The notes under the pieces: generated by a model
What the model was told of the DNA's origin: nothing
Database searches by the model: none
The model's input: the letters and a program-made list of their open reading frames with translations, nothing else
NCBI GenBank assembly: GCA_030697795.1
Contig: JAUYOV010000004.1
Coordinates: 144,403-208,402 of the forward strand
Direction of reading: 5' to 3'
DNA from: a bacterium
GTDB taxonomy: Bacteria > Patescibacteriota > Minisyncoccia > JACQLN01
Length of the DNA: 64,000 nt
In this document: positions 22,579-55,353 of the stretch, piece by piece
How positions within the stretch are numbered: the first letter of the stretch is position 1
How the letters are laid out: every line of letters starts with the position of its first letter
Made by a program: the position numbers and the translations under genes

Positions 22579-22650
22579 AACCCCCTCACTCAATTTGAGT
22601 GAGGGGGTTACTAGTTTCTCTTCCGATCCGCCAGCTGGCGGATCGGAAGG
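22579..22650 (-). terminator. tandem intrinsic terminators after the giant surface-protein gene
   Basis: CTTCCGATCCGCCagcTGGCGGATCGGAAG (13-bp stem) and CCCCCTCACTCaatttGAGTGAGGGGG (11-bp stem), followed on the minus strand by TTGTTTTTTATT. Confidence 0.75.
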
Positions 22651-31985: not shown

Positions 31986-33386
31986 ATGCCTCCTTCCGAA
32001 TATATCAAAAACAAAAAAGTGCTGATTATGGGTTTAGGTCTTTTGGGTGGTGGAATTGCCACAACTAAGTGGCTAGTTAAACATGGCGCCAAAGTTACGG
32101 TAACCGATTTAAAATCGCGCGCTGATTTAGCTGGTTCCATTAAAGCGCTTGGTCCAGCGATAAAAAAAGTAAAACTGGTTTTAGGCAAACACAACGAATC
32201 CGATTTTAAAAATAACCAAATTATAGTTGTTAATCCCGCAGTGCCTAAAGAAAGCCCCTTTTTAAAAATCGCGCGCGAAGCGGGTGTCACTTTAGAAAAC
32301 GAAGCCACGCTTTTTTTTAATCTTTGTTCTAGCCCAATTATTGCCGTAACAGGTACGCGGGGAAAAACCACCACAGTTAATTGGATTCTTCACTTTTTAA
32401 ATCAAAAATATCCAAATTCTGTTTTAACCGGAAACTCTTCCGATAGTCCAATGCTTGGTGTTTTAGATGGTTTAGATGGCCAAAGCCCAGTGGTGGTTGA
32501 GTTATCCTCGTGGCACTTGGAACTTTTGCCTGTCTCTAAAAAATCTCCTCACATTTCCGTTATTACCAACATCTACCCCGATCACCTGAATCGTTATAAG
32601 AATTTGACGGCATACGCCCAAGCCAAAGCCAATATTTTTAAACATCAAACTAAAAATGATTTTTTGATCTTGAATAAAAAAAATCCTTGGACCAAATTCT
32701 TCTTAAAACAATCCGCCAGTTGGCGGACCAAAAGCAAAATCATTTACTCCAGCATTGTTAAACCTCCAGGGTTTAACAAATCTTTTGTTCAACACTTAGT
32801 GTTGAACATGGGAGAACATAATTTGCAAAATCTTGTGATCGCAGCTCTGGCCGCTAACTTAGCTGGCGTGGATTGGAACTTGATAAAAAAAGCCGTAAAA
32901 ACCCTGCCTCAAATAAAATTTAGGCAAGAAATTATCTATCAAAAAGATGGCTTGACGATTGTAAACGACACCACCGCCACCTCGCCCGATGCCACCATCG
33001 CCGCTTTAAACAGATTCGCCTATCGAGGTTCAACCTCGATAGTATTGATAACCGGCGGCACTAGTAAAAATTTAGAATTTAATCCGCCAGTTGGCGGATG
33101 GGCTCGCGCTGTTAAAAAACACATAAAACCAGCCAATCTTTTCCTTTTAGATGGTTCGGCTACTAAAAAAATGTTGGACTCGCTTGGCGAAAAATATTTT
33201 AAAAAATCTAGACCCCAGCTCTATCTAGATTTTAATATTCTTTTGACTTCGGCCTTAAAACATGCGAAATTAATAAAAGGTAAAAAGGTATTACTGTTTT
33301 CACCCTCGGCCGCTTCGTTTGAAAAATTCAAAAACGAATTCGACCGTGGAGAGCGGTTCAACCAGTTCTTTAAAGAAAGGAGTTAA
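31986..33386 (+). CDS. murD: UDP-N-acetylmuramoylalanine--D-glutamate ligase
   Basis: N-terminal VLIMGLGLLGGGIATTKWL; Mur ligase P-loop AVTGTRGKTTT; 466 aa. Confidence 0.75.
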   Translation: MPPSEYIKNKKVLIMGLGLLGGGIATTKWLVKHGAKVTVTDLKSRADLAGSIKALGPAIKKVKLVLGKHNESDFKNNQIIVVNPAVPKESPFLKIAREAGVTLENEATLFFNLCSSPIIAVTGTRGKTTTVNWILHFLNQKYPNSVLTGNSSDSPMLGVLDGLDGQSPVVVELSSWHLELLPVSKKSPHISVITNIYPDHLNRYKNLTAYAQAKANIFKHQTKNDFLILNKKNPWTKFFLKQSASWRTKSKIIYSSIVKPPGFNKSFVQHLVLNMGEHNLQNLVIAALAANLAGVDWNLIKKAVKTLPQIKFRQEIIYQKDGLTIVNDTTATSPDATIAALNRFAYRGSTSIVLITGGTSKNLEFNPPVGGWARAVKKHIKPANLFLLDGSATKKMLDSLGEKYFKKSRPQLYLDFNILLTSALKHAKLIKGKKVLLFSPSAASFEKFKNEFDRGERFNQFFKERS

Positions 33387-36871: not shown

Positions 36872-37052
36872 TGTTTGTTTTTATATTAACGATTTCGTAG
36901 TATATCAGATTTTAAGAAAAAACAAAGTCCCGCTAGTGAATTTCCGATATGCATTTGTTAAAATAAACCACTTGTCCACTTTTCAGGCGATCACATTAAA
37001 AGTGGATTTATTAAACTTTATTAAACACCAAGTGTTCAATAAAAAATAAAAA

Positions 37053-37088
37053 CCCGTAGTGACCGCCTTGGGCGAGTCTACTACGGGG
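37053..37088 (-). terminator. hairpin plus U-run terminating the GC-rich island operon (left flank repeat)
   Basis: CCCGTAGTGACcgccttgggcgaGTCTACTACGGG preceded on the plus strand by AAAAAATAAAAA (a T-run on the minus strand). Confidence 0.55.
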
Positions 37089-37207: not shown

Positions 37208-37645
37208 CTATATCTTTTTTTGACCAATCATTTCCGCAACTTCCTCAATCGGATTCTTGTGCTGGTGAACTTCCTGCGGAATCTGCTGAACCTTGTATTT
37301 CTCCTTGAGATTGCAGGCTCCTTGTTCAGTCATCCACTTCAGCCACATAGCAACGCCGTTCTCCGTCGGTTCGTTCCGATACTTCGCGTTGGAGATCAAC
37401 TCGTCCAGCCGAGCGAGATTATTCGGTGTACCGGCCTCTGCGAGTTCGGGGAACCACCTCAAAAGCCAAGGTTTGCATTCGTCGTTTGCTCTTGGAAACT
37501 GGTGAGCGAACAGGTTGTCGCCGGTCATGAAGTTCAGAATGTCGTACACGCCATCGGTGTGCCGAGTGGAAACGACACGTCCCGTGATAATGCTCAATAC
37601 ATCACTAACATGAAACTCTCTCTCTCTTTCCTTTTTTGCCATCAT
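37208..37645 (-). CDS. hypothetical protein (145 aa) in GC-rich island
   Basis: Strong SD AAAGGAGGAAA 6 nt upstream of the ATG; visibly higher GC than the flanks; no recognisable domain. Confidence 0.55.
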   Translation of the reverse strand: MMAKKEREREFHVSDVLSIITGRVVSTRHTDGVYDILNFMTGDNLFAHQFPRANDECKPWLLRWFPELAEAGTPNNLARLDELISNAKYRNEPTENGVAMWLKWMTEQGACNLKEKYKVQQIPQEVHQHKNPIEEVAEMIGQKKI

Positions 37646-38409: not shown

Positions 38410-38437
38410 ATTTTTTCACATTTTCATACGCCGTACT

Positions 38438-38461
38438 CCGAGCATACGATCGTATGCTCGG
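38438..38461. repeat. perfect 24-nt palindrome CCGAGCATACGATCGTATGCTCGG
   Basis: Read directly; centre ATACGATCGTAT shared with the palindrome at 50821-50850. Confidence 0.6.
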
Positions 38462-38506
38462 TGTACGTTATTTAAATTTAAAATGCTAACTAAAATGAGA
38501 TCAAAA

Positions 38507-39355
38507 TTAACGATACACCACATCACCCAATTGGTCGTTCCTAAAAACTTTAACTCCAAACTTATTTAACCTATCCAACACTAACGGCGTGGGGTGACCA
38601 TACGAATTTTTACCAACTTGTATAATAGCTTCTTCGGGTTTGGTAATTTTTAATAAAGCTTCCGATGTAGAAGTTTTAGAACCATGATGCCCTATCTTTA
38701 GGACGTCTACATCTGAAACTATATTTGACTTGATTAATTCTTTTTCTAAAACTTCATCCATATCGCCTGTTAACAAAAACTTTTTGTGGCCCAAGTTTAA
38801 TTCACTAACAATCATAGATTCATGTATGCCTTTAAAATTTACACCGAGAGTCTCTTTGACCGGCGCCAAAATGTGCAAAATCAGATTTTGCACATTTTTG
38901 TCCAACACCTGGTGTTGGACAAAGCTTACTGTATCGCCAGCTTGGGCTAAATATATTTTAGAACCTTCCAGTTTTAAGACTGCCAAAAAATCAGCGTAAA
39001 CCTTACTTTCATAATTAGCGCCCGCCAACATAAAATTTTTAACATTATAATCTTTTAAAATAGATACTAAACCACGCAAGTGATCGGCGTGGGGGTGGGA
39101 CAAAATAACAAGTTCTATGTCTTTGTCGTAAAAAGGCATATAGCGCGAAATCTTGGCCGAAACACCGGCCGACGGCCCGCCATCTATTAAAATTTGAATA
39201 TCACTTGGTAAAACTATTAACTGGCTATCGCCCTGGCCCACATCTAAAAAAATAACTTGAGCTTTTTGATTTTCTTTTTCCAAAACAAACCAAAAAATTA
39301 AAACTGTAAGAAAAATTAATATGCCTAAAACAAAACTTTTAGTTAAGTGGATCAT
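38507..39355 (-). CDS. comEC: ComEC/Rec2 C-terminal metallo-beta-lactamase domain protein
   Basis: ILSHPHADHLRGL MBL motif; N-terminal TM helix; 282 aa. Confidence 0.7.
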   Translation of the reverse strand: MIHLTKSFVLGILIFLTVLIFWFVLEKENQKAQVIFLDVGQGDSQLIVLPSDIQILIDGGPSAGVSAKISRYMPFYDKDIELVILSHPHADHLRGLVSILKDYNVKNFMLAGANYESKVYADFLAVLKLEGSKIYLAQAGDTVSFVQHQVLDKNVQNLILHILAPVKETLGVNFKGIHESMIVSELNLGHKKFLLTGDMDEVLEKELIKSNIVSDVDVLKIGHHGSKTSTSEALLKITKPEEAIIQVGKNSYGHPTPLVLDRLNKFGVKVFRNDQLGDVVYR

Positions 39356-42465: not shown

Positions 42466-45318
42466 CTAAGAGCACCCCCCATTGGCCTCCCCGCACTGCC
42501 GGCAGGTTAAACAAGTGCCCGTGCGAATCATCATGCCGCCACAAAGCTTGCAAACTGTACCGGCATAAATTACACCAACCGATTTTTTTACGGCTATAGG
42601 TTCGCTTGCTAGTTTTGCTTGCCCCGAGCCATGTCGAGGGACCTCCACCACCACCGTTTCTTTACTAGCTAAACTTTCCATAATTAAACTGTTCCCTTCT
42701 GTGGGTGTTCCGATTTTCGGTAAATGAGTTTCTATTCTATTGGTCGAATCCAAACCAAATTCAGCTAAATCATCGGCCGGTAAAAATCTCAAAGCCAAAT
42801 ATTTAAAAATATAATCGGTGATGGAACTAGCTACTGGAATATTTTGGTTTTCGGTAAAACCCATCGGTTCGTAACGCCCGTGTATAAACTGATGACACAA
42901 TTTTTTTAAGGGCACGCCGTGTTGCAAGGCCATAGAAACAGAAATGGCAAATGTATCTAATAAACCGGCCAAGGTTGAACCTTGCTTGGCAATACGAATA
43001 AATATTTCGGCTAAAGTACTGTCATCGTAAATACTGTGCGTTAAAAAACCTTGATGCCCCGCGATAGTAAATTTATGCGTTTCCGAACTGCGAATGGATG
43101 GCAGCTTCCGCTGTTGGGGCGCAATATTTAAAGTTAATTGGGCTTTGGTTTCTCCGCCAGCTGGCAGACTTTTTGTTTTTTTGGTAGATAAAGGTTGCGC
43201 GGCTTTGCAACCATCGCGATACACTGCAAAAGCTTTTAAGCCCAGTTTCCAACCCATCATATAGGCGTCTTGAATTTCTTCTACGGTAGTTTCTTCAGAC
43301 ATATTGAAAGTTTTAGAAATTGCGCCAGAAATAAATGGCTGAACCGCCGCTACCATTTTAACGTGACCCTGCCAATGGATGGATCTGGTACCGGCTTGTG
43401 GCCTAACCGCGCAATCAAAAATAGCTAAATGTTCTTCTTTAAAACTTGGCGCGCCTTCCACCACGCCCCTATCTTCTATATATTTCATTATTTCTTTACT
43501 TTGATTTAAAGAATAGCCAAGTTTTTTTAAGGCGAAAGGAATGGTATCGGCCACAAATTTCATATAACCGCCGCCCACCAGCTGTTTATAAACCAAAGGC
43601 GCAAACAGAGGCTCCACACCCGTGCAAGCGCAATCCATCATTAAAGCAATCGTGCCGGTGGGCGCAATAACTGTAACTTGAGAATTTCTAACGCCGTATT
43701 TTTTGGCTAAATTGTAGGCCTCAACCCAAGTCTCGCCCGCAGATTTTAAAAGTTTTTTATCATCAAGCGCTTTTACACTTATTTCTTTTACTTTATCGCG
43801 ATGCATACCGATAACTTTTAACTGCGGTTCTTTGTTTACCTCATAGCCATTATGCGCGCCTATTTTTGAAGCTATAACCGCAGATAGCTTGTAAGCTTCA
43901 CCGCTCATAAGCGCGGTGATGGCACCCGCCCAAGCGCGAGCCGCATCGGAATCGTAAGCCAAAGCTTTAGCCATTAAGAGTCCGCCCAAGTTTGTAAAAC
44001 CTAAACCCAACTCTCTAAAATCGTGGGCGACTTGTTCAATTTTAGGTGTGGGATACGAAGAATGCCCCACAATAATTTCTTGAGCCAAAATCATAATATC
44101 CACCGCCTGAACAAAATCCTTCACTTTAAACATTCCATCTTTATCCAAAAAATGAATTAAATTTATAGACGACAAATTACAGGCCGAATTATCTAGGTGC
44201 ATATACTCACTGCAAGGATTGCAGCCATTGATCGGCCCCGTGTTAGAAGATGTATGCCACCTGTCTATGGTGGTTTTGTAATGCACACCGGGATCGGCAC
44301 ATTCCCAAGCGGCTTGCGATATTTCATGCATAAGTTCGCGGGCTTGGTAGGTATCGGCCACTTTTCCTGTTTTAATAAATTTAGTCTGCCATTCTTTATC
44401 TTCCTCTACTGCTTTTAAAAATTCGTCAGAAAGCCGAACAGAGTTGTTAGCATTTTGATATTGAATAGACGCCCAAGCTGGCTCGTTTAAGTTCTGCATA
44501 TTATAACCGGTAGTAATAAACGCCCGAACTTTTTTTTCTTCCTCGGCTTTACAACGGATAAATTCCATTACATCGGGGTGATCTATATTTAACAAAACCA
44601 TTTTGGCGGCGCGCCTGGTAGCTCCGCCCGATTTAATCATACCAGCCACCGAATCTGCTCCGCGCATAAACGAAACCGGTCCCGAAGAAAAACCGCCATG
44701 AGACAATGGTTCTCGGGAAGATCTTAATGCTGATAAATTTATGCCCGCCCCCGATCCGCCTTTAAAAATTCTGGCTTCGGTGGAAATCCAATCCATAATG
44801 GATTCCATATTGTCATCTACGCTTAAAATAAAGCAGGCCGAACATTGCGGTTTTTCTTTTATGCCGACGTTAAACCAAACTGGGCTATTAAAAGCCGCTT
44901 TTTGGTAAACCAATAAATGAGTTAATTCATTTTCAAAAGTTTTAGCTTCGTTTTTGGTATTAAAATAGCCGGACTTTTCTCCCCATGCGGTAATATTTTT
45001 TACCACGCGGTTTATCATTTGCTTAACCGAAGTTTCACGTTTGTCGCCCGAACCGCGAAAATATTTAGAACCAGCAATGCTAGCCGCGTTATGCGACCAA
45101 AATTTGGGAAACTCTAAATTTTTGGCATCCACCAATGTGCCCTGCGGGCCAGATATTTTTATATCCCGCTTCTCCCACTTAAATTCATCGTAGGGATGAA
45201 CACTGGGTTTAGTAAAATATCGTTTAACCAAAGATATTTTGGAATCACCCTTAATACGATTAACTAGTGAATCACGTTTGACGTGATTGACGCGATTGGC
45301 CACAGCAGAATTTCTCAT
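42466..45318 (-). CDS. nrdJ: adenosylcobalamin-dependent (class II) ribonucleotide reductase
   Basis: 950 aa; RNR catalytic core blocks; C-terminal zinc ribbon CKLCGGMMIRTGTCLTCRQCG. Confidence 0.85.
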   Translation of the reverse strand: MRNSAVANRVNHVKRDSLVNRIKGDSKISLVKRYFTKPSVHPYDEFKWEKRDIKISGPQGTLVDAKNLEFPKFWSHNAASIAGSKYFRGSGDKRETSVKQMINRVVKNITAWGEKSGYFNTKNEAKTFENELTHLLVYQKAAFNSPVWFNVGIKEKPQCSACFILSVDDNMESIMDWISTEARIFKGGSGAGINLSALRSSREPLSHGGFSSGPVSFMRGADSVAGMIKSGGATRRAAKMVLLNIDHPDVMEFIRCKAEEEKKVRAFITTGYNMQNLNEPAWASIQYQNANNSVRLSDEFLKAVEEDKEWQTKFIKTGKVADTYQARELMHEISQAAWECADPGVHYKTTIDRWHTSSNTGPINGCNPCSEYMHLDNSACNLSSINLIHFLDKDGMFKVKDFVQAVDIMILAQEIIVGHSSYPTPKIEQVAHDFRELGLGFTNLGGLLMAKALAYDSDAARAWAGAITALMSGEAYKLSAVIASKIGAHNGYEVNKEPQLKVIGMHRDKVKEISVKALDDKKLLKSAGETWVEAYNLAKKYGVRNSQVTVIAPTGTIALMMDCACTGVEPLFAPLVYKQLVGGGYMKFVADTIPFALKKLGYSLNQSKEIMKYIEDRGVVEGAPSFKEEHLAIFDCAVRPQAGTRSIHWQGHVKMVAAVQPFISGAISKTFNMSEETTVEEIQDAYMMGWKLGLKAFAVYRDGCKAAQPLSTKKTKSLPAGGETKAQLTLNIAPQQRKLPSIRSSETHKFTIAGHQGFLTHSIYDDSTLAEIFIRIAKQGSTLAGLLDTFAISVSMALQHGVPLKKLCHQFIHGRYEPMGFTENQNIPVASSITDYIFKYLALRFLPADDLAEFGLDSTNRIETHLPKIGTPTEGNSLIMESLASKETVVVEVPRHGSGQAKLASEPIAVKKSVGVIYAGTVCKLCGGMMIRTGTCLTCRQCGEANGGCS

Positions 45319-45644
45319 ATTTTTTATGAGATTCGTTAGTCTGCAACCAGAAACACCTTATTAAGGATTGAACCTTGAATCAAAAAATCTCCAGACGACC
45401 AAAACAACCAGAGATTTTTAAACTCAAAGACCAATTGCAAAAAATCCGAACCGCATTTAATTACTTAATTACTAAATTACTAAATTACTTTCTTATTTTA
45501 CACCTATAACTTTTAAAAGAGAAAAAACGATCTTATCCACAACGTCTAACGTTGTTTCACAGATAAAAGACCTGTTTGACAATAGATAACCATAGTTGCT
45601 TTAATTTATAGAGTTCCTTTATAAATCCTAAAAGGAGAAGGCGT

Positions 45645-45875
45645 ATGCAAAAAAGAGATTATGTAACAAGGATTACTCTGATTCCCATTTTTGCCATAGG
45701 ATTTTTTGCAGGCCTTGAAGCCTATGCCCTATGCTTTGCGCTTTGGATTATCATCAACGGCACACTAAGAACTCCCAACACTTATTTAGAGGAGGATGAT
45801 TCATACCGAGAAATAAACTTTGTAGGGATGCAAACGAAAGAATCGAGTGAAGAGCTCATCACTTTATCGGTTTAA
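45645..45875 (+). CDS. small membrane protein (76 aa)
   Basis: AAAGGAGAAGG SD; TM segment ITLIPIFAIGFFAGLEAYALCFALWIII. Confidence 0.45.
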   Translation: MQKRDYVTRITLIPIFAIGFFAGLEAYALCFALWIIINGTLRTPNTYLEEDDSYREINFVGMQTKESSEELITLSV

Positions 45876-45945
45876 CCATTTCTATCGAAATGAGACTTCA
45901 ATAGATTAGTGATCTACAAAACAAACCTCTAAAAAGGAGTCTAAA

Positions 45946-46161
45946 ATGAACAATGGCAGGAAGGACGAATGGTACTTTCTTTTCCTACTAATAGCCGCCT
46001 TTTTTGTTGGTCCGATAATATGTCCCATCGGATCATACAAGTATTACCTAGCAGTACTTATGGGAATTGCCATAGGTAGAGTAATTGAAATACTAAGTGA
46101 AGTTATAAAAGAGTTTAGAAAAAGTAGTTCCATACTCGACTTCATAAAAACTGTCTTCTAA
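45946..46161 (+). CDS. small membrane protein (71 aa)
   Basis: AAAAGGAG SD; two TM segments; followed by a terminator. Confidence 0.45.
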   Translation: MNNGRKDEWYFLFLLIAAFFVGPIICPIGSYKYYLAVLMGIAIGRVIEILSEVIKEFRKSSSILDFIKTVF

Positions 46162-46169
46162 AAAACAAA

Positions 46170-46200
46170 CCCGCCCCGATAATATCGGGGCGGTATTTTA
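46170..46200 (+). terminator. intrinsic terminator
   Basis: AACCCGCCCCGATaatATCGGGGCGGTATTTTATTT. Confidence 0.7.
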
Positions 46201-46210
46201 TTTATACAAT

Positions 46211-46242
46211 AGCACGAGAACTGCGATCGCAGTTCTCGTGCT
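46211..46242. repeat. perfect 32-nt palindrome AGCACGAGAACTGCGATCGCAGTTCTCGTGCT (REP-like family)
   Basis: Read directly; arms shared with 50821-50850. Confidence 0.65.
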
Positions 46243-46345
46243 AAATTACTTAATTACTAATTACTTCACCCCCACAAACTCGCCCCGAGATAATTGAATA
46301 GCAAGACGATGTGGGGTTCATTCGCCCACGACGCAACGTCGGGAC

Positions 46346-47524
46346 TCACTTCATCTTCCTCCTAATAAACGCTGGCACCACAAACTCGTCGTCGTTTTCG
46401 TCTTCTTCATTCACCGAAGAAACTTGGGCCTCAAAAGCTTTGCCTGGTGGCTTGGCGGTTTTTAAAACAATATTTTCTTCGCTACTATCGTCTCTTCTGG
46501 GTACGTAAGATTCTCTAGCTTTAAGAAAAGATGAGGCATCGTTTAATAGGGATTTAGCTTCGGAAACTTCTGTATTAAAACCTGTAGCCACTACCGTAAC
46601 TTTAATTTCACCTTTCTTTAGTTTATCGTCTAGCACCGCGCCAAAAATTACTTTAGCGTCGCGGTCTATGGATTCAGTAATAATTTGAGCGGCTTCGTTG
46701 ACTTCGCTCATACTTAAATCAGCCCCACCAGAAATATTAAACAACACACCCTTAGCCCCATTTATAGAAACCTCTAACAAGGGCGAGTTAATAGCCGCCC
46801 TCGCCGCTTCTTGAGCCCTGTCATCACCCGTAGCGCGACCTATGCCCATTAAAGCCGAGCCCGCATCTTTCATAATAGCTTTAACATCCGCAAAGTCCAC
46901 GTTAACAATACCAGGCATGGTAATTAAATCGGAGATGCCCTGGACCGCTTGGCGCAAAACATCATCTACAATTTCGAACGAACTTACCAGCGAAGTTTTT
47001 CTATCGATAATCGTAAGCAACCTATCGTTAGGAATAACAATTATCGTATCCACTCTTTCTTTTAATTCTTCTATGCCAGTTTCGGCGATGCGATTTCTTT
47101 GCAAACCCTCAAAAGAAAATGGTCTGGTAATAACAGCCACAGTTAAAGCGCCCGATTCCTTGGCGGCTTCCGCCACTATGGGCGCCGCACCTGTGCCGGT
47201 ACCGCCACCCATACCGCAAGTTATAAAAACCATATCGGAACCGCGAATGGCCTCTTCTATATCTTCTCGGCTTTCTTCGGCAGCTTGCCGGCCAATATCA
47301 GGGTTCATACCCGCGCCCAAACCGCGCGTGGTATTTTTGCCAATATGAATTTTGCGAGGCGCCAAACAATGATGCAAAGCTTGAGCATCGGTATTAACCG
47401 CCACAAAATCCACGCCTTGAATACGGCTCGCCATCATGCGGTGTATAGCCGAACCGCCCGAACCGCCCACGCCCACCACTCTTATTCGGGCAAATGTTTC
47501 TACATCGGGTTTAACTTGAGGCAT
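46346..47524 (-). CDS. ftsZ: cell division protein FtsZ
   Basis: [13 protein letters not shown]; [14 protein letters not shown] tubulin signature. Confidence 0.95.
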
Positions 47525-48013: not shown

Positions 48014-49243
48014 TTACGGAATCAACTCCGAAAACCAGTCTTTTATTTTTGGCCATAAACCGCTACCCGGCAAAGATTCCATTGTTCTTGGTTTATCTTT
48101 TTTAACCAGCTCATTATCATTCTCGTAAAGAAGAATTCCCACCAGCGTAGCAGTCTCCGGGCTAAAAAGTTCGCTGAAATCAGTTTTAATTTCGCGAGCG
48201 CGTCCAATTTCAATATTTAATTTTAATTTTTTGCGGGCAAGCTCCATCAAGCCATCCATTTTTACGCCACCGCCCGTCAGCACCACGCCCGCCGGCAAAT
48301 TGGGTTTACCCGATTTTTTAATTTCATCGTTAACCATTTCAAAAATTTCGCTGGTACGTGCTTCAACTATTCTAGCCAACTCCCATTTTGGTATAACCGC
48401 ATCGTTGTTCGTCCAATCAGCTAATATAATTTGTTCCCTTCTAGAAACATTGCTAGAAATACAGCAAGCATGTTCCAATTTTATTCTTTCGGAAACTTCG
48501 TACGCCACCTTAAGCCCTACCGCTACATCGTTAGTTATATTACCCGAGCCCACCGGCACCACACCGGCATGTTTTAATTCCGATTCCTCCCAAATAGAAA
48601 CCCCGGTTGTGCCAACGCCAACATCAACTACCGCCACGCCTAGTTCGCGTTGTTTTTTAGTAAGTACCGCCCGGCTAACAGCCAAAGGAGCATAAATAAG
48701 ATTTTCTAATTCTAACCCTGCATCGTGTATAGCTTTTCTGACCAATCTTAAAACAGGCGTAGAACCTAAAACCAAAATAGAATCAACTTCCAGCCTAATG
48801 CCTTTCATGCCCGTAGGATCCTTGGCCTTATCTAGGCCATCTACAGTGTACGAAATAGGAATAGTGTGAACTATTTCCCTATTAGGTGGCAAGGGTACGG
48901 CTCTGGCTGAATCTAAAACCCTGTTAATATCGTCTAGAGAAATTTCACCATCGGCCCTAGAAACAGCAACCGAACCATGAGAACTAATTAACTTAAAATG
49001 AGGACCGCTTAGACCCACCGACAAGCGAGTTATTTTTACATTACCGCTTTTAGAGGCCACTGCTACAGCTTCTTTAATTGATTCTACCGCTTCTTTTATA
49101 TCTATTATCTGCCCCCGCCTTATGCCCCTCGCTAAACTTTCTCCACAACCAATAACTTTTAAATCTTCACCAACTAAAAGAATGCCCACCCTAATTTTGT
49201 GTGAACCCAAATCCAAAGCGGTGATGATGTGTTCTCGTGCCAA
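48014..49243 (-). CDS. ftsA: cell division protein FtsA (TTG start)
   Basis: Actin-fold blocks ALDLGSHKIRVGIL…VVDVGVGTTGVSIWEE; 409 aa. Confidence 0.85.
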   Translation of the reverse strand: MAREHIITALDLGSHKIRVGILLVGEDLKVIGCGESLARGIRRGQIIDIKEAVESIKEAVAVASKSGNVKITRLSVGLSGPHFKLISSHGSVAVSRADGEISLDDINRVLDSARAVPLPPNREIVHTIPISYTVDGLDKAKDPTGMKGIRLEVDSILVLGSTPVLRLVRKAIHDAGLELENLIYAPLAVSRAVLTKKQRELGVAVVDVGVGTTGVSIWEESELKHAGVVPVGSGNITNDVAVGLKVAYEVSERIKLEHACCISSNVSRREQIILADWTNNDAVIPKWELARIVEARTSEIFEMVNDEIKKSGKPNLPAGVVLTGGGVKMDGLMELARKKLKLNIEIGRAREIKTDFSELFSPETATLVGILLYENDNELVKKDKPRTMESLPGSGLWPKIKDWFSELIP

Positions 49244-49306
49244 AGTAGTTTAAAAAATTATCGATTATCAATTTACAACTATCAAATACTAAGCCTAAGA
49301 AAACAT

Positions 49307-49383
49307 CGTCCCGAACAGCATTATGGAGAAGACTATTTATATAATAAAGAGGCTCCATATCGTCTGTGAGGGATGATGTTTTC
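49307..49383 (-). promoter_or_regulatory. 78-nt promoter-like element upstream of ftsA (copy 1 of 2)
   Basis: About 90% identical to 54117-54193; minus-strand reading contains TATATAAAT (-10-like). Confidence 0.4.
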
Positions 49384-49402
49384 TTGAGAAATAGTTTGAA
49401 AA

Positions 49403-49798
49403 CTAGATAAGCTTAACTCCTAACTTTTTCAAAACTGCTTTTTCTAATTCTTCCATTTCCAACTCATCTTTTCGAGCTTCATGATTGTATCCAGCTAAAT
49501 GCAATATACCATGAACGATAAGTCGCGTCATCCATTTTTTTTGTGTAAAACCATACCTTTTTGCCTCCTCCGACACCACAGCTGGGCAAATAACAACATC
49601 ACCAGTTTCGAAACTTAAAACATTGGTCGGTTTATTTTTACCGCGATATTTTTTATTAAGTTCTGCCATTTTCTTTTTAGAAACAAAAACAAGGCCGTAA
49701 TCTGCTACGGTCTTATTTTTTGGTAAACAGGAATTTACCGATTTCAATATTTTATTTTTCTCTATACCAGCATAAGAAAATTTAACATTGCGCTCCAT
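49403..49798 (-). CDS. ybeY: rRNA maturation RNase YbeY
   Basis: HGILHLAGYNHE zinc motif; 131 aa. Confidence 0.8.
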   Translation of the reverse strand: MERNVKFSYAGIEKNKILKSVNSCLPKNKTVADYGLVFVSKKKMAELNKKYRGKNKPTNVLSFETGDVVICPAVVSEEAKRYGFTQKKWMTRLIVHGILHLAGYNHEARKDELEMEELEKAVLKKLGVKLI

Positions 49799-49806
49799 TT
49801 TTGTTT

Positions 49807-50259
49807 CTATTCCAACATTGGTTCAAGTATATTTTTGACTCTATTACCATCAGCCCGGCCAGCGAGTTCTTTAACGGCTAAACCCATTATTCTGCCAAAA
49901 TCTTTTTTAGATTTTGAACCGGCTTCGACCATAGCTTTTTCAATGGCTTTTTTAACATCTTCGTCGCTAGCTTCTGGCGGTAAGAATTTTTTTAAAATTT
50001 CGGCTTCAGCTTCTTCGCTAGCCGCCCTCTCTTTTTCGCCAGCCGATTTAAAAACTGCAGTAGCCTCTAGCCTCTTTTTAAGTTCTGATCTAATAACTTC
50101 TTGAGTTTCCGTTTCGGTTAAACCCTCTTCTTTCTTTTTCTTTTCTATTTCTTTGTTTTGAATAGCCGATTTAAGCATACCCAAAACCGAGCGCTTAAAA
50201 CTATCGCCCGCCTTTAAAGCTTCTTTGAGATCAAAATTTATTTGTTCTTTTAAATTCAT
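49807..50259 (-). CDS. yqeY: GatB/YqeY domain protein
   Basis: KEALKAGDSFKRSVLGMLKSAIQNKEIE typical YqeY N-terminus. Confidence 0.7.
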   Translation of the reverse strand: MNLKEQINFDLKEALKAGDSFKRSVLGMLKSAIQNKEIEKKKKEEGLTETETQEVIRSELKKRLEATAVFKSAGEKERAASEEAEAEILKKFLPPEASDEDVKKAIEKAMVEAGSKSKKDFGRIMGLAVKELAGRADGNRVKNILEPMLE

Positions 50260-50528
50260 TGATAAATATCGTGCGTGCCAACTTCTAAAAACAAAACAGT
50301 GCTGTCGTTAAGAAAAATAAATTTGATTCTGTATTTATGCGTAATGGAAAAAGACCAGCTGTTTTTATCTTTACCGTGAAGCTTATGAGTATTCAACCGC
50401 GAATCAAAAGGGTTTGCCTTAAATATATTTTCCTTTTCTTGAGCTTGATCAACTAAATGTTTGGGCAAACGGCCTAGCTGTCTTAAAAAACGCTTGGAAT
50501 AATTAACGCTTACCTCTTTTCCGAGCAT
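50256..50528 (-). CDS. relE: RelE/ParE-family toxin
   Basis: …HKLHGKDKNSWSFSITHKYRIKFIFLNDSTVLFLEVGTHDIY characteristic C-terminus. Confidence 0.65.
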   Translation of the reverse strand: MLGKEVSVNYSKRFLRQLGRLPKHLVDQAQEKENIFKANPFDSRLNTHKLHGKDKNSWSFSITHKYRIKFIFLNDSTVLFLEVGTHDIYQ

Positions 50529-50760
50529 GAATTTTAAGAGCTTCCTTTAAAGAAGGCGCTGTTATTGTTTTACCCTCGTGATACTCTTTCAATCCATCTT
50601 CCACTAATTTATCCAGCCTTAGCGCTTGTTTGCCTTTCAAATAATAAACCGTCGCTGATTTTTCTAGCAGTTTATGATATTCCTTAAGAGTCATCACTAC
50701 CTTATCACCTTCTATTTTTATTTTATTTTTACTAATGGTAACGCTAGACATATCTGACAT
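50503..50760 (-). CDS. yefM: Phd/YefM-family antitoxin (start set at MSDMSSV; ORF-track extension runs into the palindrome)
   Basis: SVTISKNKIKIEGDKVVMTLKEYHKLLEK…YYLKGKQALRLDKLVEDGLKEY; overlaps the toxin start. Confidence 0.6.
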   Translation of the reverse strand: MSDMSSVTISKNKIKIEGDKVVMTLKEYHKLLEKSATVYYLKGKQALRLDKLVEDGLKEYHEGKTITAPSLKEALKIHARKRGKR

Positions 50761-50820
50761 TATAAACATAAACACCAAAAACTCAAGCGTGACAATAAGA
50801 TGGCCATCCTGAATAAAAAT

Positions 50821-50850
50821 AGCACGAGAATACGATCGTATTCTCGTGCT
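50821..50850. repeat. perfect 30-nt palindrome AGCACGAGAATACGATCGTATTCTCGTGCT upstream of the TA operon
   Basis: Read directly. Confidence 0.65.
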
Positions 50851-50888
50851 AAACAAAATCCTCCAAGCGACAAACTCGCGGAGGATTT

Positions 50889-51146
50889 TTATCTTTTCTG
50901 CTTTATTTTTGACAAATCCATCTTCTCTCCTGGTTCAATTTCGCCCAGCTTACTAAGTTCAGCTCGCAGGCCACGCAGTCTTTCACGGCGCAAAGCGCTA
51001 TTTTTCTTTTTTAGTTTGCTTTTTTGGCGAATGCGAAACCTATTCTGGCGCGCCTTAAGCAAAACGCCACTTTGCCTCACTTTTTTGGTGAAGCGTCGCA
51101 ATAAATTTGGAGTTGATTCTTTATCTTTTTTTCTTAGTTCAATCAT
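50889..51146 (-). CDS. rpsU: 30S ribosomal protein S21
   Basis: LLRRFTKKVRQSGVLLKARQNRF resembles [23 protein letters not shown]. Confidence 0.65.
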   Translation of the reverse strand: MIELRKKDKESTPNLLRRFTKKVRQSGVLLKARQNRFRIRQKSKLKKKNSALRRERLRGLRAELSKLGEIEPGEKMDLSKIKQKR

Positions 51147-51245
51147 AAATATACTAATTTACAAATGTATACGAATTATACTAATGACTTCACGAATATT
51201 TGTAACCTATTCGTATCATTCGCATAGATTCGTATATTGGTATAA

Positions 51246-51578
51246 TTAAGGTAGTTCTACCTTTCCACCTGCCAACAAATGCAAGTGCAAGTGATCTATA
51301 ACCTGCCCGCCATCTCGACCTACATTAAAAACCAATTTATAGCCTAAAATATTCTTATCTTTAGCCACTTCGGCCGCCTTTTTAACTAAACCCATCACCA
51401 CAGGCCACTCTTCCCGACCAACCGCCGAAACCGAATGGATATGCTTTTTAGGCACAATCAGCCAATGTGTCTCGGCTTTGGGCTGAATATCTTCAAAAAC
51501 GACAATCTCATCATCTTCAGCTACGATGTCCGATGATACCTCATGTCGGCAAATTTTGCAAAAGATGCAGTCATTCAT
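51246..51578 (-). CDS. HIT-family (histidine triad) hydrolase
   Basis: HLHLHLL triad; DCIFCKI N-terminus. Confidence 0.85.
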   Translation of the reverse strand: MNDCIFCKICRHEVSSDIVAEDDEIVVFEDIQPKAETHWLIVPKKHIHSVSAVGREEWPVVMGLVKKAAEVAKDKNILGYKLVFNVGRDGGQVIDHLHLHLLAGGKVELP

Positions 51579-52134
51579 GGTTTATGGTCGATAGTTATCA
51601 GTTTTAGTTATTTAGTTTCTGGTTTTAGTTCTGTAAAACTTTAACTAAGAACTAATAAACTGCAACCAGTAACTAATAACTATAAACTAGCTTGTTTGCT
51701 ACCATTAGATAGTAGAATAAAAAATGGTAACGGTCAAAAAAGAATGATGCCTAAACGGAGCTATTGGTAACCCTTCAACTCGCAGACTTGTTCAGGGTAT
51801 TTGTTCAACACTAAGTGTTGAACAAATAAAAAGATCGGAGTTTTATGGCGCCGACCGGCTAAGATACTTCACGGCAATATATGGATCCGAAGCATGGAAG
51901 GAAGCTACGAGCATTTGATGAGGAGAGTGATAAGCCCCGCAAAAACTACCACCACTATCAGAAGGTAATATGCACCATATAATCAGCTTTTAAGCCGTTT
52001 TTTGGCCCCGGCGAGGAGTTTAGTAAACAAGGTCTTGTATAAAATAAGGATATTGCTAACATAAAGCTACTAGGCCTTAGGGCTCCGAGATCCCGCTCTA
52101 TTTATGGAGTGGGATTGAGTTTTATGCGAGAAGA

Positions 52135-53412
52135 TTAACCCTTCAATCTCCTTTTAACTTCCCCCATCAACTTAGCCAAGGGCACGGTTTCTTGAACGCC
52201 CGAAGTCATATCGCGGATAATAATTTCGTTGTCTAACGCTTCTTTCTGGCCCAAAATTAAAGTTAGTTTAACGCCCAGCTTATCGGCATTTTTCATTTGC
52301 GATTTTATAGAATGCTTGCTTATAGACTCCGCCATTAAAACACCCTCTTTTCTAAATTCTTCTAAAATCTTAAGGCTTTTCTTTTTAGCTAGATCCCCCA
52401 GTTGAACCAAAAACAATCTATACTGTGGCCAAGAAGGAATTCTGGCTTTAGCTTCTTTCATTTCCAAAATTATTCTTTCCATACCCGCCGCAAAGCCGAT
52501 AGCTGGAACATTTTTTCCACCCAGCATTTCGGCCAGTCCATCGTATCGGCCACCCGAAGCTAAAGCCGATTGCGAACCTCTTTTTTCTTCTATATAAATT
52601 TCGAAAACAGTTTTATTGTAATAATCCAAACCCCTAACTAAATGTGGATTTAAGTTATAAGGAATATCAAGTTCGTCTAAAAATTCTAACAGCTTTTTAA
52701 AGTGATTGCGGCAATCATCGCAAATAAAATCTAAAATCTGCGGGGCTTTGGCGATGATTTCTTGACAGCCCTCTTCTTTGCAATCTAAAACTCTTAAAGG
52801 ATTAACCTTAGATCTTCTCTGGCAATTAGCACACATTTTTTTAAGATTATTGCGTAAAAAATCTTTAAGCGCTTGGCGATATTTAATTCGGCAGATTTTG
52901 TCGCCTAGACTATTTACTTCGCACACCATATTCTTAAGTCCAAAATCGGCGAGCAAACTCATAGCTATTTGAATCATTTGCGCGTCTATCACAGCATCTT
53001 CCGAACCAATAACTTCAAAACCTAATTGATGAAATTGTCTAAACCGGCCGGCTTGCGGGCTTTCGTGCCTAAACATCGGGCCCATATAAAAAACCTTCAC
53101 CGGTTGGGGCGAAGATTCCCAGCCGTGTTCTAAATAGGCTCGCATTATTGGTGCGGTGTTTTCGGGGCGCAAAGCTAATTCGTCGCCACCCTTGGTTTTA
53201 AGCGTAAACATTTCTTTTTCCACTACATCGCTCGATACCCCTAAACTTTTTTCAAAAACGGCTTGATTTTCTAAAATTGGAGTTTCCACAAAACCAAAAT
53301 CATAAAATTCGGCCATATCAAAAGTCTCACGTCTTATCTTTTCCCAATAAAGCAAATCATCGGGCAGAATATCGTGCATACCGGTTGGGGTTGAGAGTAA
53401 TTGTTTCGCCAT
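52135..53412 (-). CDS. hisS: histidine--tRNA ligase
   Basis: Class II aaRS motifs; N-terminal GMHDILPDD…FVETPILE; 425 aa. Confidence 0.85.
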   Translation of the reverse strand: MAKQLLSTPTGMHDILPDDLLYWEKIRRETFDMAEFYDFGFVETPILENQAVFEKSLGVSSDVVEKEMFTLKTKGGDELALRPENTAPIMRAYLEHGWESSPQPVKVFYMGPMFRHESPQAGRFRQFHQLGFEVIGSEDAVIDAQMIQIAMSLLADFGLKNMVCEVNSLGDKICRIKYRQALKDFLRNNLKKMCANCQRRSKVNPLRVLDCKEEGCQEIIAKAPQILDFICDDCRNHFKKLLEFLDELDIPYNLNPHLVRGLDYYNKTVFEIYIEEKRGSQSALASGGRYDGLAEMLGGKNVPAIGFAAGMERIILEMKEAKARIPSWPQYRLFLVQLGDLAKKKSLKILEEFRKEGVLMAESISKHSIKSQMKNADKLGVKLTLILGQKEALDNEIIIRDMTSGVQETVPLAKLMGEVKRRLKG

Positions 53413-53507
53413 TTTTAGCTTTCTAGCTTGTTAGCTTTCTAGGATATTAGCCTTGAATTTCTTGCTCTTAACTTTCCTAATTCCTAACATCCTAAGAAGC
53501 TAATCTC

Positions 53508-54146
53508 CTAATATATCGGACTCTGTATCGTTCCCGCATTACTAACCGGCCAAACTCTAAACCAAGCCTTGCCTACTATCAAGTGTTTGTAAAGGGGCCC
53601 CCACCGGCGCGAATCCGAAGAAGCATCGCGGTTATCGCCCAAAACAAAATACTCGTTATCGTCCATTTTAATTTTCATATCACCCGGGGTATTTTCTTCT
53701 AAATATTTTTCGCGTAATTCCAGACCCAAAGGATTATCTCGGTTATAAATAACCACTTTGCCATCTTTAACCTCTACCGTTTCTTCCGGCATACCGACTA
53801 TGCGTTTTATATAATACTGACTGGGATCTTGTGGAAATCTAAACACTATAACCTCTCCACGCTTAGGCTTATCAAAACGATAAGATAGTTCGTCTATTAT
53901 TAAATAATCCTTATCGCCAAAAGAAGGATACATAGATTCGCCGCGCACAAAAAACGGCTGAATTATGAAAAAACGAATCGGCAAAATAATAAGCAAAGAA
54001 ACAACCACTATTTTGATTGTCTCCCACAAAAAATCCCCTGTTTCTTTAAAAAAATTGCCCATTTGTACCAAGATAATAGCATTTTTTGTGCTAATAAGCA
54101 AAACTATCAAAAATATCGTTCCGAGCAGCATTATGGAGAAGACCAT
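53508..54146 (-). CDS. lepB: signal peptidase I
   Basis: GESMYPSF (catalytic Ser) … YFVLGDNRDASSDSRRWGP; the predicted N-terminus lies inside the 78-nt repeat, so the real start may be the internal ATG (MLLGT…). Confidence 0.85.
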   Translation of the reverse strand: MVFSIMLLGTIFLIVLLISTKNAIILVQMGNFFKETGDFLWETIKIVVVSLLIILPIRFFIIQPFFVRGESMYPSFGDKDYLIIDELSYRFDKPKRGEVIVFRFPQDPSQYYIKRIVGMPEETVEVKDGKVVIYNRDNPLGLELREKYLEENTPGDMKIKMDDNEYFVLGDNRDASSDSRRWGPLYKHLIVGKAWFRVWPVSNAGTIQSPIY

Positions 54147-54193
54147 TTATACAAATAAAGAGGCTCCATATCGTCTGCGAGGAATGATGTTTT
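54117..54193 (-). promoter_or_regulatory. 78-nt promoter-like element (copy 2 of 2) at the lepB 5' end
   Basis: About 90% identical to 49307-49383; contains TTGTATAAAT (extended -10-like). Confidence 0.4.
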
Positions 54194-54225
54194 GACCACC
54201 AAGCCAATGGTATTTATGTTAAAAT

Positions 54226-55245: not shown

Positions 55246-55353
55246 CCAATTTACAATTTACAATGAATTTTCAATGATTCAATTATCAAACCCGTTTGAA
55301 AATTGGTTAATTGGAGTTTGATTGAAAATTGGAATTTGAAAATTGAAAATTAT

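Follow-up and report, generated by a model that had tools for sequence, protein, structure and literature searches.

Palindromic repeats in the window

We examined a family of short palindromes in a 64,000-nucleotide stretch of DNA (hereafter, the window) from a bacterium of the Patescibacteriota (Minisyncoccia; JACQLN01), namely positions 144,403 to 208,402 of contig JAUYOV010000004.1 from assembly GCA_030697795.1. The window is 38% GC and encodes a split ComEC and a lamin-tail-domain protein, and the best matches to its MurD are named Patescibacteria, Parcubacteria, or Minisyncoccia. The palindromes have the core TGTYCAACAC-YNR-GTGTTGRACA, which is present in three perfect copies (at 32786, 38899, and 51802). 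Two of these lie within genes, and there are at least three diverged copies as well (at 32755, 37019, and 38868). The two host genes and the copies are:

31986-33386, plus strand: murD, encoding UDP-N-acetylmuramoylalanine--D-glutamate ligase (466 amino acids; Mur ligase domains)
32755-32779: companion hairpin in murD, TTGTTAAACC-TCCAG-GGTTTAACAA (10-5-10), 6 nt upstream of copy 1, encoding VKPPGFN
32786-32808: copy 1, TGTTCAACACTTAGTGTTGAACA, arms TGTTCAACAC-TTA-GTGTTGAACA, perfect 11-1-11, in frame in MurD (residues 267-274, (F)VQHLVL(N))
37019-37041: imperfect copy, TATTAAACACCAAGTGTTCAATA, arms TATTAAACAC-CAA-GTGTTCAATA, intergenic, adjoining a terminator-like GC hairpin
38507-39355, minus strand: gene for the metallo-beta-lactamase (MBL)-fold domain protein of the split ComEC (282 amino acids, versus 273-275 in most orthologues)
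38868-38898: companion hairpin in the MBL gene (unit 2), AAAATGTGCAAAAT-CAG-ATTTTGCACATTTT, 15-1-15, encoding NVQNLILHIL
38899-38921: core of copy 2, TGTCCAACACCTGGTGTTGGACA; the perfect 13-1-13 palindrome is 38897-38923, TTTGTCCAACACC-T-GGTGTTGGACAAA, in frame in the MBL gene (coding strand minus)
51802-51824: core of copy 3, TGTTCAACACTAAGTGTTGAACA; the perfect 15-1-15 palindrome is 51798-51828, TATTTGTTCAACAC-TAA-GTGTTGAACAAATA, in the 557-bp spacer between hisS and the HIT gene

We searched the window with the pattern TGTYCAACACYNRGTGTTGRACA, allowing up to 3 mismatches, and used 100 dinucleotide-preserving shuffles as the control. There were exactly 3 matches (0.00 expected), and none of the 100 shuffles yielded any. 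An earlier reading of this DNA (the original prediction) had reported the same three palindromes and considered them to be far beyond chance, which our counts bear out. It had also described them as perfect 12-1-12 palindromes. This does not hold for the MurD copy, which is 11-1-11 (the 12th pair is T/T), while the MBL copy is 13-1-13 and the intergenic copy is 15-1-15; the coordinates that it gave for copies 2 and 3 were off by one base at each end. It was right that the two intragenic copies are read in frame: they encode F267-VQHLVL-N274 in MurD and F145-VQHQVLD in the MBL protein, in the same phase. What it took for a half-site at 37023-37040 is a full imperfect copy (37019-37041).

When folded as single-stranded DNA, the perfect, companion, and imperfect copies in the window all form hairpins (z-scores of -5.1 to -7.3). 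The repeat units have stems of 10-15 bp and a 3-nt loop (z-scores of -6.5 to -7.3); copy 1, for instance, forms a 10-bp stem with a 3-nt loop.

Beside each intragenic copy is a companion hairpin, which the original prediction did not mention. The arms of the companion in murD resemble the TGTTAAAC...GTTTAACA variant that is seen within genes for proteins like the REP-associated tyrosine transposases (RAYTs; REP stands for repetitive extragenic palindromic), which are described below. Unit 2 differs from the G-type core by two compensated pair changes, and its CAAAAT/ATTTTG variant also flanks and interrupts the RAYT gene of L017 (we give loci from other genomes as L numbers). The imperfect copy at 37019-37041 is of an asymmetric type, with A opposite C at stem position 5, and three hairpins of this same type lie around and inside the RAYT gene of L127.

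The ORFs (open reading frames) that overlap the spacer around copy 3 are just 27-46 amino acids long. The copy 3 hairpin is not followed by a T-run on either strand, and it does not match any Rfam family; across the window, Rfam identified two tRNAs and nothing else at the gathering threshold. An E-value search of the spacer against Rfam gave matches to miRNA hairpins only, which we judged to be meaningless.

Occurrence across genomes

We scanned one genome from each of 185,579 species, in 8-kb tiles, for the 23-mer TGTNCAACACNNNGTGTTGNACA. It was found in at least 120 tiles from about 80 assemblies. Among the matches listed, almost all have the label Patescibacteria, Parcubacteria, Paceibacterota, or Minisyncoccia, or that of a named candidate phylum (Nomura-, Zambryski-, Niyogi-, Vogel-, Kaiser-, Sung-, Taylor-, Nealson-, and Falkowbacteria, for instance). 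The label "Saccharibacteria" also occurs among the matches listed, and three have odd labels, which may be binning or labelling errors. By chance, we would expect about 9 matches on the 18 fixed bases, or less than 1 if the two N positions must be complementary too. Because the 18 fixed positions are conserved by construction, the real diversity of the repeat is wider than these matches show.

Several assemblies have 3-5 matching tiles among the matches listed. The palindrome had no matches in viral contigs (IMG/VR), and we set aside the idea of a viral origin. A copy in L084 resembles copy 3 with a flipped centre, and we set it aside as not orthologous to the window.

The matching tiles often hold 2-3 copies within about 700 bp, bracketing an ORF of about 220 amino acids that contains a further in-frame copy. 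Across all loci among the matches listed, 42% of the sites lie within ORFs of at least 150 amino acids, versus 79% of random positions; put the other way, 58% of sites are outside such ORFs, versus 21% of random positions. The intragenic sites are read as VQHxVL (39 sites), CxTxxVx (16), or xNTxCxT (8). Part of this phase bias is accounted for by stop codons (the T variant has TGA in its third phase) and by the cysteine-rich peptide that this phase would yield.

A linked transposase gene

The ORFs of about 220 amino acids match Y1_Tnp in Pfam (PF01797, the IS200-like HUH transposase family), with E values of 4e-8 to 4e-13. They also match the NCBIfam model for REP-associated tyrosine transposases (REP_Tyr_transpos), at 34-45 bits and thus below its cutoff of 80 bits. 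Using tblastn, we found a RAYT-like gene in 26 of the 120 palindrome tiles listed, while a single gene of about 660 bp in a genome of about 1 Mb would be expected in just 1-2% of random tiles.

The transposase family has over 2,000 clusters at 90% identity. The closest 120 members are 215-234 amino acids long and come from the candidate phyla radiation (CPR), and the clusters are mostly on 1-3 contigs each. All 120 have the motif NHFH, and nearly all have GH[VLI]FQG and Y[IV]H[RK]NP. The tyrosine motif of the CPR proteins, YIHRNP, has the form Y..xNP, which is that of class 2 (the RAYTs), rather than the Y...Q of IS200 (PMC6006769, Table 1). We also compared an AlphaFold model of one member, P0121 (mean predicted local distance difference test, or pLDDT, of 84.6), to known structures. 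The best match was 4ER8_A (E = 1.5e-5; TM score of 0.64 on the target), which is TnpAREP from E. coli bound to a REP hairpin. The next best matches were the TnpA proteins of IS608 and ISDra2.

In L020, L050, L125/126, L129, and the contig that encodes P0188, the transposase gene occupies a conserved slot, FtsA-YbeY-...-HisRS-signal peptidase-Pth-RAYT. Because the same Pth-RAYT slot is used in several lineages with diverged RAYTs and hairpins, this fits vertical inheritance. The window has the FtsA-YbeY-...-HisRS-signal peptidase-Pth cluster at 48014-55929, with a LytR gene inserted before pth.

Two RAYTs are encoded together on one contig, and in L111 the RAYT gene and its hairpins are present twice, in tandem and in identical form (184-921 and 1320-2057, with a period of 1136 nt), which could be either a real duplication or an assembly artefact. 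Close to the C-terminus of the L111 RAYT is an additional insert that is encoded by a palindrome (TPSVQHSVLDRT). The RAYT gene of L072 is on the plus strand. Many of the contigs that encode a RAYT are only 1-2 kb long.

Hairpins around the transposase genes

We searched for perfect hairpins around 29 RAYT-like genes, without using any motif. At 26 of the 29 loci, a perfect hairpin is no more than about 50 nt away from an end of the gene (typically 10-50 nt before the start codon or 0-20 nt after the stop codon), and 12 of the 29 have a perfect in-frame hairpin inside the gene, at amino acids 57-61. The hairpins of L127 are imperfect.

Three of the loci (L125, L129, and L127) were fetched by protein identity and not by DNA motif, and all three have the hairpin variant that is predicted from the internal peptide of their own RAYT. 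L125 has the internal peptide FVQSRALD, and its flanks are TGTCCAAAGC-CGA-GCTTTGGACA (the CCAAAGC/GCTTTGG type). L129 has FVKSSAFD, with TGTCAAAAGC-TCG-GCTTTTGACA (the CAAAAGC/GCTTTTG type) at the 5' end, internally, and at the 3' end. L127 has FVKHSVFN, with the asymmetric hairpin TGTTAAACAC-NNN-GTGTTCAACA at the same three positions, all in the same arm orientation. More broadly, the dominant internal peptides are VKHSVF, VQHxVL, VQSRAL, and VKSSAF, and they covary as a palindrome requires: K with F (AAA/TTT), Q with L (CAA/TTG), H with V (CAC/GTG), and S with A (AGC/GCT). RAYT paralogues with 32-48% identity have unrelated palindromes in the same layout (L116, L001, L011, L031, L043, and L097). 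For instance, the paralogue in L116 has AATCAAGGGCGTGCCTTGATT at its 5' end, at amino acid 61, and at its 3' end.

Beside the flanking hairpins of L125 (5940-5990 and 6667-6720) and L129 (930-985 and 1660-1710), there are also extra direct repeats of one half-site: CCTGTCCAAAGCA precedes the 5' hairpin, and three repeats of TTGGACAG follow the 3' hairpin. These could be slippage products, or they could correspond to the guide or cleavage-site sequences of IS200/IS605 elements, which they recall.

Since the gene is a Pfam Y1_Tnp that is bounded by hairpins, we considered whether the palindromes might be the solo ends of autonomous IS200/IS605-type insertion sequences that have lost their transposase, instead of REPs that are served by a domesticated RAYT. 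The common orientation of the three hairpins in L127 is as in IS200/IS605 ends, and the identical tandem copies in L111 would also fit. But this explanation is quite unlikely: the tyrosine motif is of the class 2 (RAYT) type and not Y...Q (PMC6006769), the gene tables of the fetched RAYT loci show no adjacent tnpB (no neighbour of that size), and the protein clusters are mostly on just 1-3 contigs each. The shared syntenic slot, with diverged RAYTs and hairpins, fits vertical inheritance instead. Also, the solo units are only about 27 nt long, occur in tandem pairs, and are kept at orthologous sites with compensatory changes (see below).

Covariation of the stems

Stem positions 4 and 20 are complementary in 130 of the 145 distinct sites (G-C in 52, T-A in 43, and C-G in 33). 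Across these 145 sites, complementarity extends about 6 nt outward from the core, at 31-48% versus a background of about 25%. We also assembled 16 natural variants by hand from the loci, which illustrate the covariation but do not estimate it: two-sided changes are seen in 7 of the 10 stem pairs, pairing is kept in 97.5% of cells, and there are no one-sided (G·T-type) changes in 160 stem cells. None of 500 shuffles reached the covariation score of this set. The covariation of the stems points to base pairing rather than two independent half-sites, and the lack of wobble intermediates favours a constraint on both strands of the DNA over a structure in RNA from one strand.

The loop is YNR, and it is CGA or TCG in 61% of sites. 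The flanks of the 145 sites have only a slight excess of A 5' of the hairpin and of T 3' of it. The invariant TGT/ACA lies within the stem and was fixed by the search pattern.

These results bear on whether the hairpins act mainly in RNA or in transcription (as intrinsic terminators, mRNA stabilisers, or targets of RNases), with the link to the transposase being secondary. Classical REPs do act as terminators or stabilisers (PMC3733652). Many intergenic copies have a 5' A-run and a 3' T-run, like bidirectional terminators, and the sites are about two-fold enriched outside of long ORFs (42% inside versus 79% for random positions). However, none of the three copies in the window has a T-run on either strand, and two of them lie mid-gene in intact genes, so that terminating transcription there would be damaging. 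The absence of one-sided, G·U-type changes from the 160 stem cells argues for Watson-Crick symmetry on both strands and hence a constraint at the level of DNA. A role in RNA would also leave the in-frame copy within the RAYT gene, and the match between RAYT and hairpin variants, unexplained. We consider it unlikely that this is the main function of the hairpins.

The copies within the host genes

Copy 2 is a 27-nt in-frame insertion that encodes VQHQVLDKN (residues 146-154 of the MBL protein). In both protein and DNA alignments, the syntenic orthologues from L121 and L123 (77-81% identity) have a clean gap of 9 amino acids or 27 nt: the window has GDTVSF[VQHQVLDKN]VQNLILHIL, and the orthologue has GDLISY followed directly by EKDPILKIL. 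These two relatives are represented by two contigs each (L121/L122, which come from the Hainich groundwater series, and L123/L124). Their 21 kb of fully syntenic DNA (75-85% nucleotide identity) contains no copies of the repeat at up to 5 mismatches. In an AlphaFold model of the MBL protein (pLDDT of 89.7), a long beta-hairpin has its distal half and its tip made up of residues 146-154 (strands 142-150 and 153-164; pLDDT is below 50 at 149-154), so the insert would lengthen an existing surface hairpin.

The MurD of the window is 13-18 amino acids longer than its closest orthologues. Copy 1 lies just before the conserved GxHN motif, in a stretch that varies in sequence and length in every orthologue and that is 5-8 residues longer in the window than in the closest relatives. 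As judged from these alignments, copy 1 sits in a hypervariable, indel-rich loop of an intact ORF. Of the two FVQHxVL segments that the original prediction proposed to check as possible insertions relative to homologues, the one in the MBL protein corresponds to a clean 27-nt gap, and the one in MurD is in a loop of variable length. According to the prediction, finding the same residues in orthologues from unrelated bacteria would make the segments ordinary coding sequence. We did not find shared residues at the site in most MurD or ComEC orthologues, yet a related subset of MBL proteins does have the insertion in degenerate form (FVKHxxSDK-NVQHPxLHIL). This form is common to about 12 orthologue clusters with 66-74% identity; the insertion is absent from the closest group of orthologues (75-79% identity) and from all of the 273-amino-acid orthologues.

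In the DNA, a tandem pair of hairpins occupies the orthologous MBL site, and from genome to genome their stems differ by compensated changes. The window and L132 share AAAATGTGCAAAATCTGATTTTGCACATTTT as unit 2. In L131 it is GCCAAAATGTTCAACACTTAGTGTTGAACATTTTGGC, which is the canonical core (18-1-18), and in L130 it is TGTGCAACAT-CCG-ATGTTACACA. The encoded peptide shifts with the DNA: NVQNLILHIL in the window, NVQHLVLNIL in L131, and NVQHPMLHIL in L130.

The original prediction had offered, as another possibility, that the palindromes are high-affinity operators of a dimeric regulator, with intragenic sites. The regulator might then be a LexA-, GntR-, or NrdR-like repressor, and some sites would just happen to fall within genes. 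The perfect dyad symmetry has a length typical of operators, many species share the conserved core (as they do LexA boxes or parS), and copy 3 is upstream of the HIT gene. Nevertheless, this is very improbable. Two half-sites that are each read on their own would not be expected to show compensated changes within the arms, and beyond the core the palindrome continues with sequence that is specific to each locus. The copies are insertions that are absent from syntenic relatives; 42% of sites are in ORFs, and two of the three sites in the window are in the middle of a gene. Finally, the gene that is consistently linked is a Y1 transposase, which has one copy within its coding sequence and a second one past the stop codon, and no transcription factor gene is recurrently adjacent.

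Similar evidence applies to the idea that these are parS-like sites for a divergent ParB or uptake sequences for the ComEC machinery. The sites resemble parS in that they are conserved palindromes, can be intragenic, and have TGTT...AACA ends; CPR bacteria depend on ComEC-mediated uptake, and one copy is in the comEC MBL gene. But canonical parS (TGTTNCACGTGNAACA, 16 bp) is absent from the window, where the best match has 3 mismatches (the chance level), and there is no parB near the sites among the annotated genes of the window. Known uptake sequences are usually short, lack palindromic symmetry, and occur in very large numbers. The sites vary as insertions between close relatives. Covarying stems and RAYT-matched variants would not be expected for a single conserved protein-DNA interface. 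Overall, we consider this explanation extremely improbable. We also considered a parS near 54 kb, where the GC skew and the gene strand switch, and rejected it: the window contains no parS, and there is no dnaA or parB around the switch. The GC skew of the window simply tracks gene orientation.

Other palindromes and features of the window

Counting perfect palindromes with an odd loop and arms of 9 nt or more, we found 16 in the window, versus a mean of 1.3 (maximum of 3) in block shuffles.

A GC-rich family of mini-palindromes, TCCGCCAG(Y)TGGCGGA, has four copies in the window (22627-22642, 32712-32727, 33083-33098, and 43153-43168), and none of 100 shuffles reached this count. Two of the copies are in MurD, in different frames (QSASWRTK and NPPVGGW). 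Both coincide with clean insertions of 4 amino acids (12 nt) that are found sporadically among the orthologues (as SASWRT, SANWRT, or FAGWRT, and as PPVG or PPAG). P0069 has SASWRT at yet another position, and copies of this family also occur in L082 and in the MurD orthologue of L130.

Another family, TATCGAGG-N5-CCTCGATA, is found in the window at 33020-33042, in L130 (14841), L011 (5376), L036 (6857), and L026 (2535). The copy in the window, CTATCGAGGTTCAACCTCGATAG, is also in frame in MurD (YRGSTSI), at an indel-rich spot, and is common to some orthologues. In L011, a divergent RAYT paralogue is preceded by a close variant at a distance of 1 nt, and a related palindrome is at the 5' end, inside, and at the 3' end of the RAYT in L116. 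Given its presence at these two RAYT loci, this family is probably the REP of another RAYT subfamily. In total, MurD contains five in-frame palindromes from three families.

Two long even palindromes of the form TAGCACGAGAA..CGATCG..TTCTCGTGCTA are perfect and span 34 and 32 nt (46210-46243 and 50820-50851), and a related palindrome of 36 nt (38432-38467) is just downstream of the MBL gene. We did not find this family in the other loci that we compared.

Several of the 16 odd-loop palindromes are GC-rich, terminator-like hairpins at gene ends (22579, 27400, 31362, 33613, 46171, 55928, and 63936). The "GC-rich island" of the original prediction (37053-37088) folds into a GC-rich hairpin that, on the minus strand, runs into a stretch of T, and it is probably the intrinsic terminator of the minus-strand gene at 37208-37645 (DUF7736). 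Immediately upstream of the HIT start codon is an AT-rich imperfect inverted repeat of about 100 nt (51593-51692; TAGTTATCAGTTTTAGTTATTTAG...CTAATAACTATAAACTA), which matches only models of miRNA precursors, as a generic hairpin. Between the ribonucleotide reductase gene and ftsZ, there is 1 kb without any ORF of at least 80 amino acids (45318-46346). This region appears to hold two small hydrophobic ORFs, with starts near 45646 and 45947, and it ends in a terminator-like hairpin (46171-46193).

A probable REP-like family and its transposase

Taken together, the range of the family, the layout of hairpins around the RAYT genes, the match between RAYT and hairpin variants, the covariation of the stems, and the insertion in the MBL gene make it likely that these palindromes are a REP-like hairpin family of the Patescibacteria/Parcubacteria, cognate to a clade-specific HUH-Y1 transposase that resembles RAYT/TnpAREP and would act on single-stranded DNA.

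We infer that the RAYT mobilises or maintains the hairpins, acting on them as single strands. A unit, once single-stranded, would fold into a stem of 10-15 bp with a 3-nt YNR loop. The transposase of the CPR would then recognise the hairpin and cut and rejoin single strands, by analogy with the TnpA of IS608 and TnpAREP of E. coli; the similarity of its predicted fold to the 4ER8 and IS608 complexes suggests that it binds and cleaves the hairpin as single-stranded DNA. Such cutting and rejoining would spread units of about 27 nt through the genome and might also excise or homogenise them. The unit length is a multiple of three, the VQHxVL frame would be open unless the loop is TAA, TAG, or TGA, and the CxTxxVx frame would be open as well, so an insertion into a tolerant surface loop could add about 9 residues and survive. 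Copies would then persist at orthologous sites with compensatory changes in their stems, and the protein sequence would follow the DNA.

Several observations weigh against this interpretation. Within the window, tblastn with 8 RAYT-like proteins did not find a RAYT-like gene (the best E value was 0.43, and the matches at that level or worse were to the palindrome-encoded peptide only), and the slot after pth holds a terminator-like hairpin and no RAYT. The intragenic fraction of 42% is far above that of classical REPs. Beside the 145 oriented sites there is no GT[AG]G or CGTC tag (the maximum at the flanking positions is 0.23 bits), and the hairpin is perfectly symmetric, so that the strand-specific features of known Y1 transposases are not evident. 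Lastly, a quick neighbour-joining tree of the MBL proteins does not place the carriers of the insertion in a single clade, and there is no clean pattern of a single gain. The history of this insertion may therefore involve gain, loss, or recombination, and any recent mobility of the copy is putative.

We speculate, while considering it less likely than not, that the hairpin is an obligatory and co-evolving part of the system, with each RAYT subfamily recognising its own gene through the in-frame copy (around amino acids 57-61) and the copies at the ends. If so, then recognition of its own gene might provide autoregulation, or the gene might serve as a master copy that seeds new units. The system would have persisted through the radiation of the Parcubacteria while writing modules of about 9 amino acids that form beta-hairpins (VQHxVL and others) into MurD, ComEC, and other proteins. 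The conserved object at such sites would be the DNA hairpin and not the protein, as compensatory changes in the stem alter the amino acids, and this would be a source of many small insertions in CPR proteins that is driven by DNA structure.

Even without this stronger claim, if the palindromes are REP-like repeats with a cognate RAYT, then the Parcubacteria have a widespread and long-lived hairpin-repeat/RAYT system whose repeat is untagged and symmetric. The transposase gene would contain its own target at a fixed, in-frame position, and questions about what RAYTs do and how they recognise their repeats could be addressed using a very simple substrate. Short DNA hairpins would account for some of the lineage-specific insertions in conserved proteins of CPR bacteria, and selection or repair would be keeping the DNA palindrome while the protein drifts. 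The repeats probably fragment CPR assemblies, given how many RAYT contigs are only 1-2 kb, and they may cause errors when CPR proteins are annotated and aligned.

Most descriptions of REP/RAYT systems come from Proteobacteria, Cyanobacteria, and Bacteroidetes. In the literature that we searched, we found no description of them in CPR bacteria, although this does not prove that none exists.

Comparison with known systems

The IS200/IS605 elements (such as IS608 and ISDra2) share the HUH-Y1 fold and the recognition of hairpins at their ends, and their seamless cut-and-paste of single-stranded DNA is the mechanistic template for our proposal. These elements have the Y...Q motif, distinct left and right ends, guide tetranucleotides, often tnpB, and multiple identical copies, none of which we saw. 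Instead, the CPR loci have the same hairpin at both ends of the gene.

The original prediction compared the in-frame palindromes to the Rickettsia palindromic elements (RPEs), and in substance this comparison holds. Both are palindromic repeats that lie in frame within intact genes and add a peptide in tolerant regions, and both are found in host-dependent bacteria with reduced genomes; the MBL gene has a 9-amino-acid insertion of this kind, from a dispersed family that is tied to a Y1 transposase. But our repeats are not RPEs: they are about 27 nt (9 amino acids) long, versus 100-150 bp for RPE-1, they lack the CGTC or GTAG tag, they are in another phylum, and there is no sequence similarity. 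RPE-4 and RPE-6 are CGTC-tagged REPs (PMC3733652).

Within class 2, the CPR motifs (NHFH, FQG, and YIHRNP) fit the second signature of TnpAY1 subclass 2.1, or TIRYTs, which is NH[YF]H/FQ/Y[IV]HLNP (Quentin et al. 2018, PMC6006769; Di Nocera et al. 2013, PMC3733652). The length is also similar (about 220 amino acids, with a C-terminal extension), and among the terminal repeats of TIRYTs are some that are self-complementary and make up small families of repeats (PMC3733652). The motifs suggest a link with subclass 2.1. On the other hand, subclass 2.1 is described as having no REP-like hairpins nearby, its terminal inverted repeats have an unrelated consensus, GGGG[AT][CG]A[CG] (PMC6006769), and no internal in-frame copy is described there.

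Internal copies are known from subclass 2.4, in Cyanobacteria and Bacteroidetes, which has REPs within the transposase gene that do not break the frame, as well as symmetric "double-foot" REPs (PMC6006769, section 12). In-frame REPs within tnpAREP genes of this subclass are documented (PMC6006769), as are REPtrons and in-frame REPs in many other genes (PMC3733652). What distinguishes the CPR internal hairpin is that it lies N-terminal to the HuH motif, at a fixed position (amino acids 57-61) across divergent paralogues whose hairpins are unrelated, and that it covaries with the flanking copies.

There are several differences from the REP/RAYT systems in general. The CPR repeat has no GT[AG]G or CGTC tag; its units are perfectly symmetric and not tagged imperfect hairpins; and they are single or in tandem pairs, not in inverted REP doublets. 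About 40% of the units are intragenic, and orthologous in-frame hairpins evolve by compensatory change. Also, classical REPs are species-specific (PMC6006769), while the CPR core is common to many lineages at the level of candidate phyla.

The resemblance to the REP/RAYT systems (REPtrons; E. coli YafM/TnpAREP, as in 4ER8, or REPIN-RAYT in Pseudomonas) is nonetheless extensive. In both, short hairpin repeats are dispersed through the genome and also flank an apparently low-copy HUH-Y1 gene with the Y..xNP motif, and each transposase subfamily has its own cognate repeat (as with the variants in L125, L129, L127, and L017 and the palindromes of the paralogues). The best structural match is TnpAREP with its REP. 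In both, the gene is in conserved synteny: RAYTs are housekeeping-like and vertically inherited (PMC5581495), and the presence of the CPR gene in the same slot across lineages is consistent with this.

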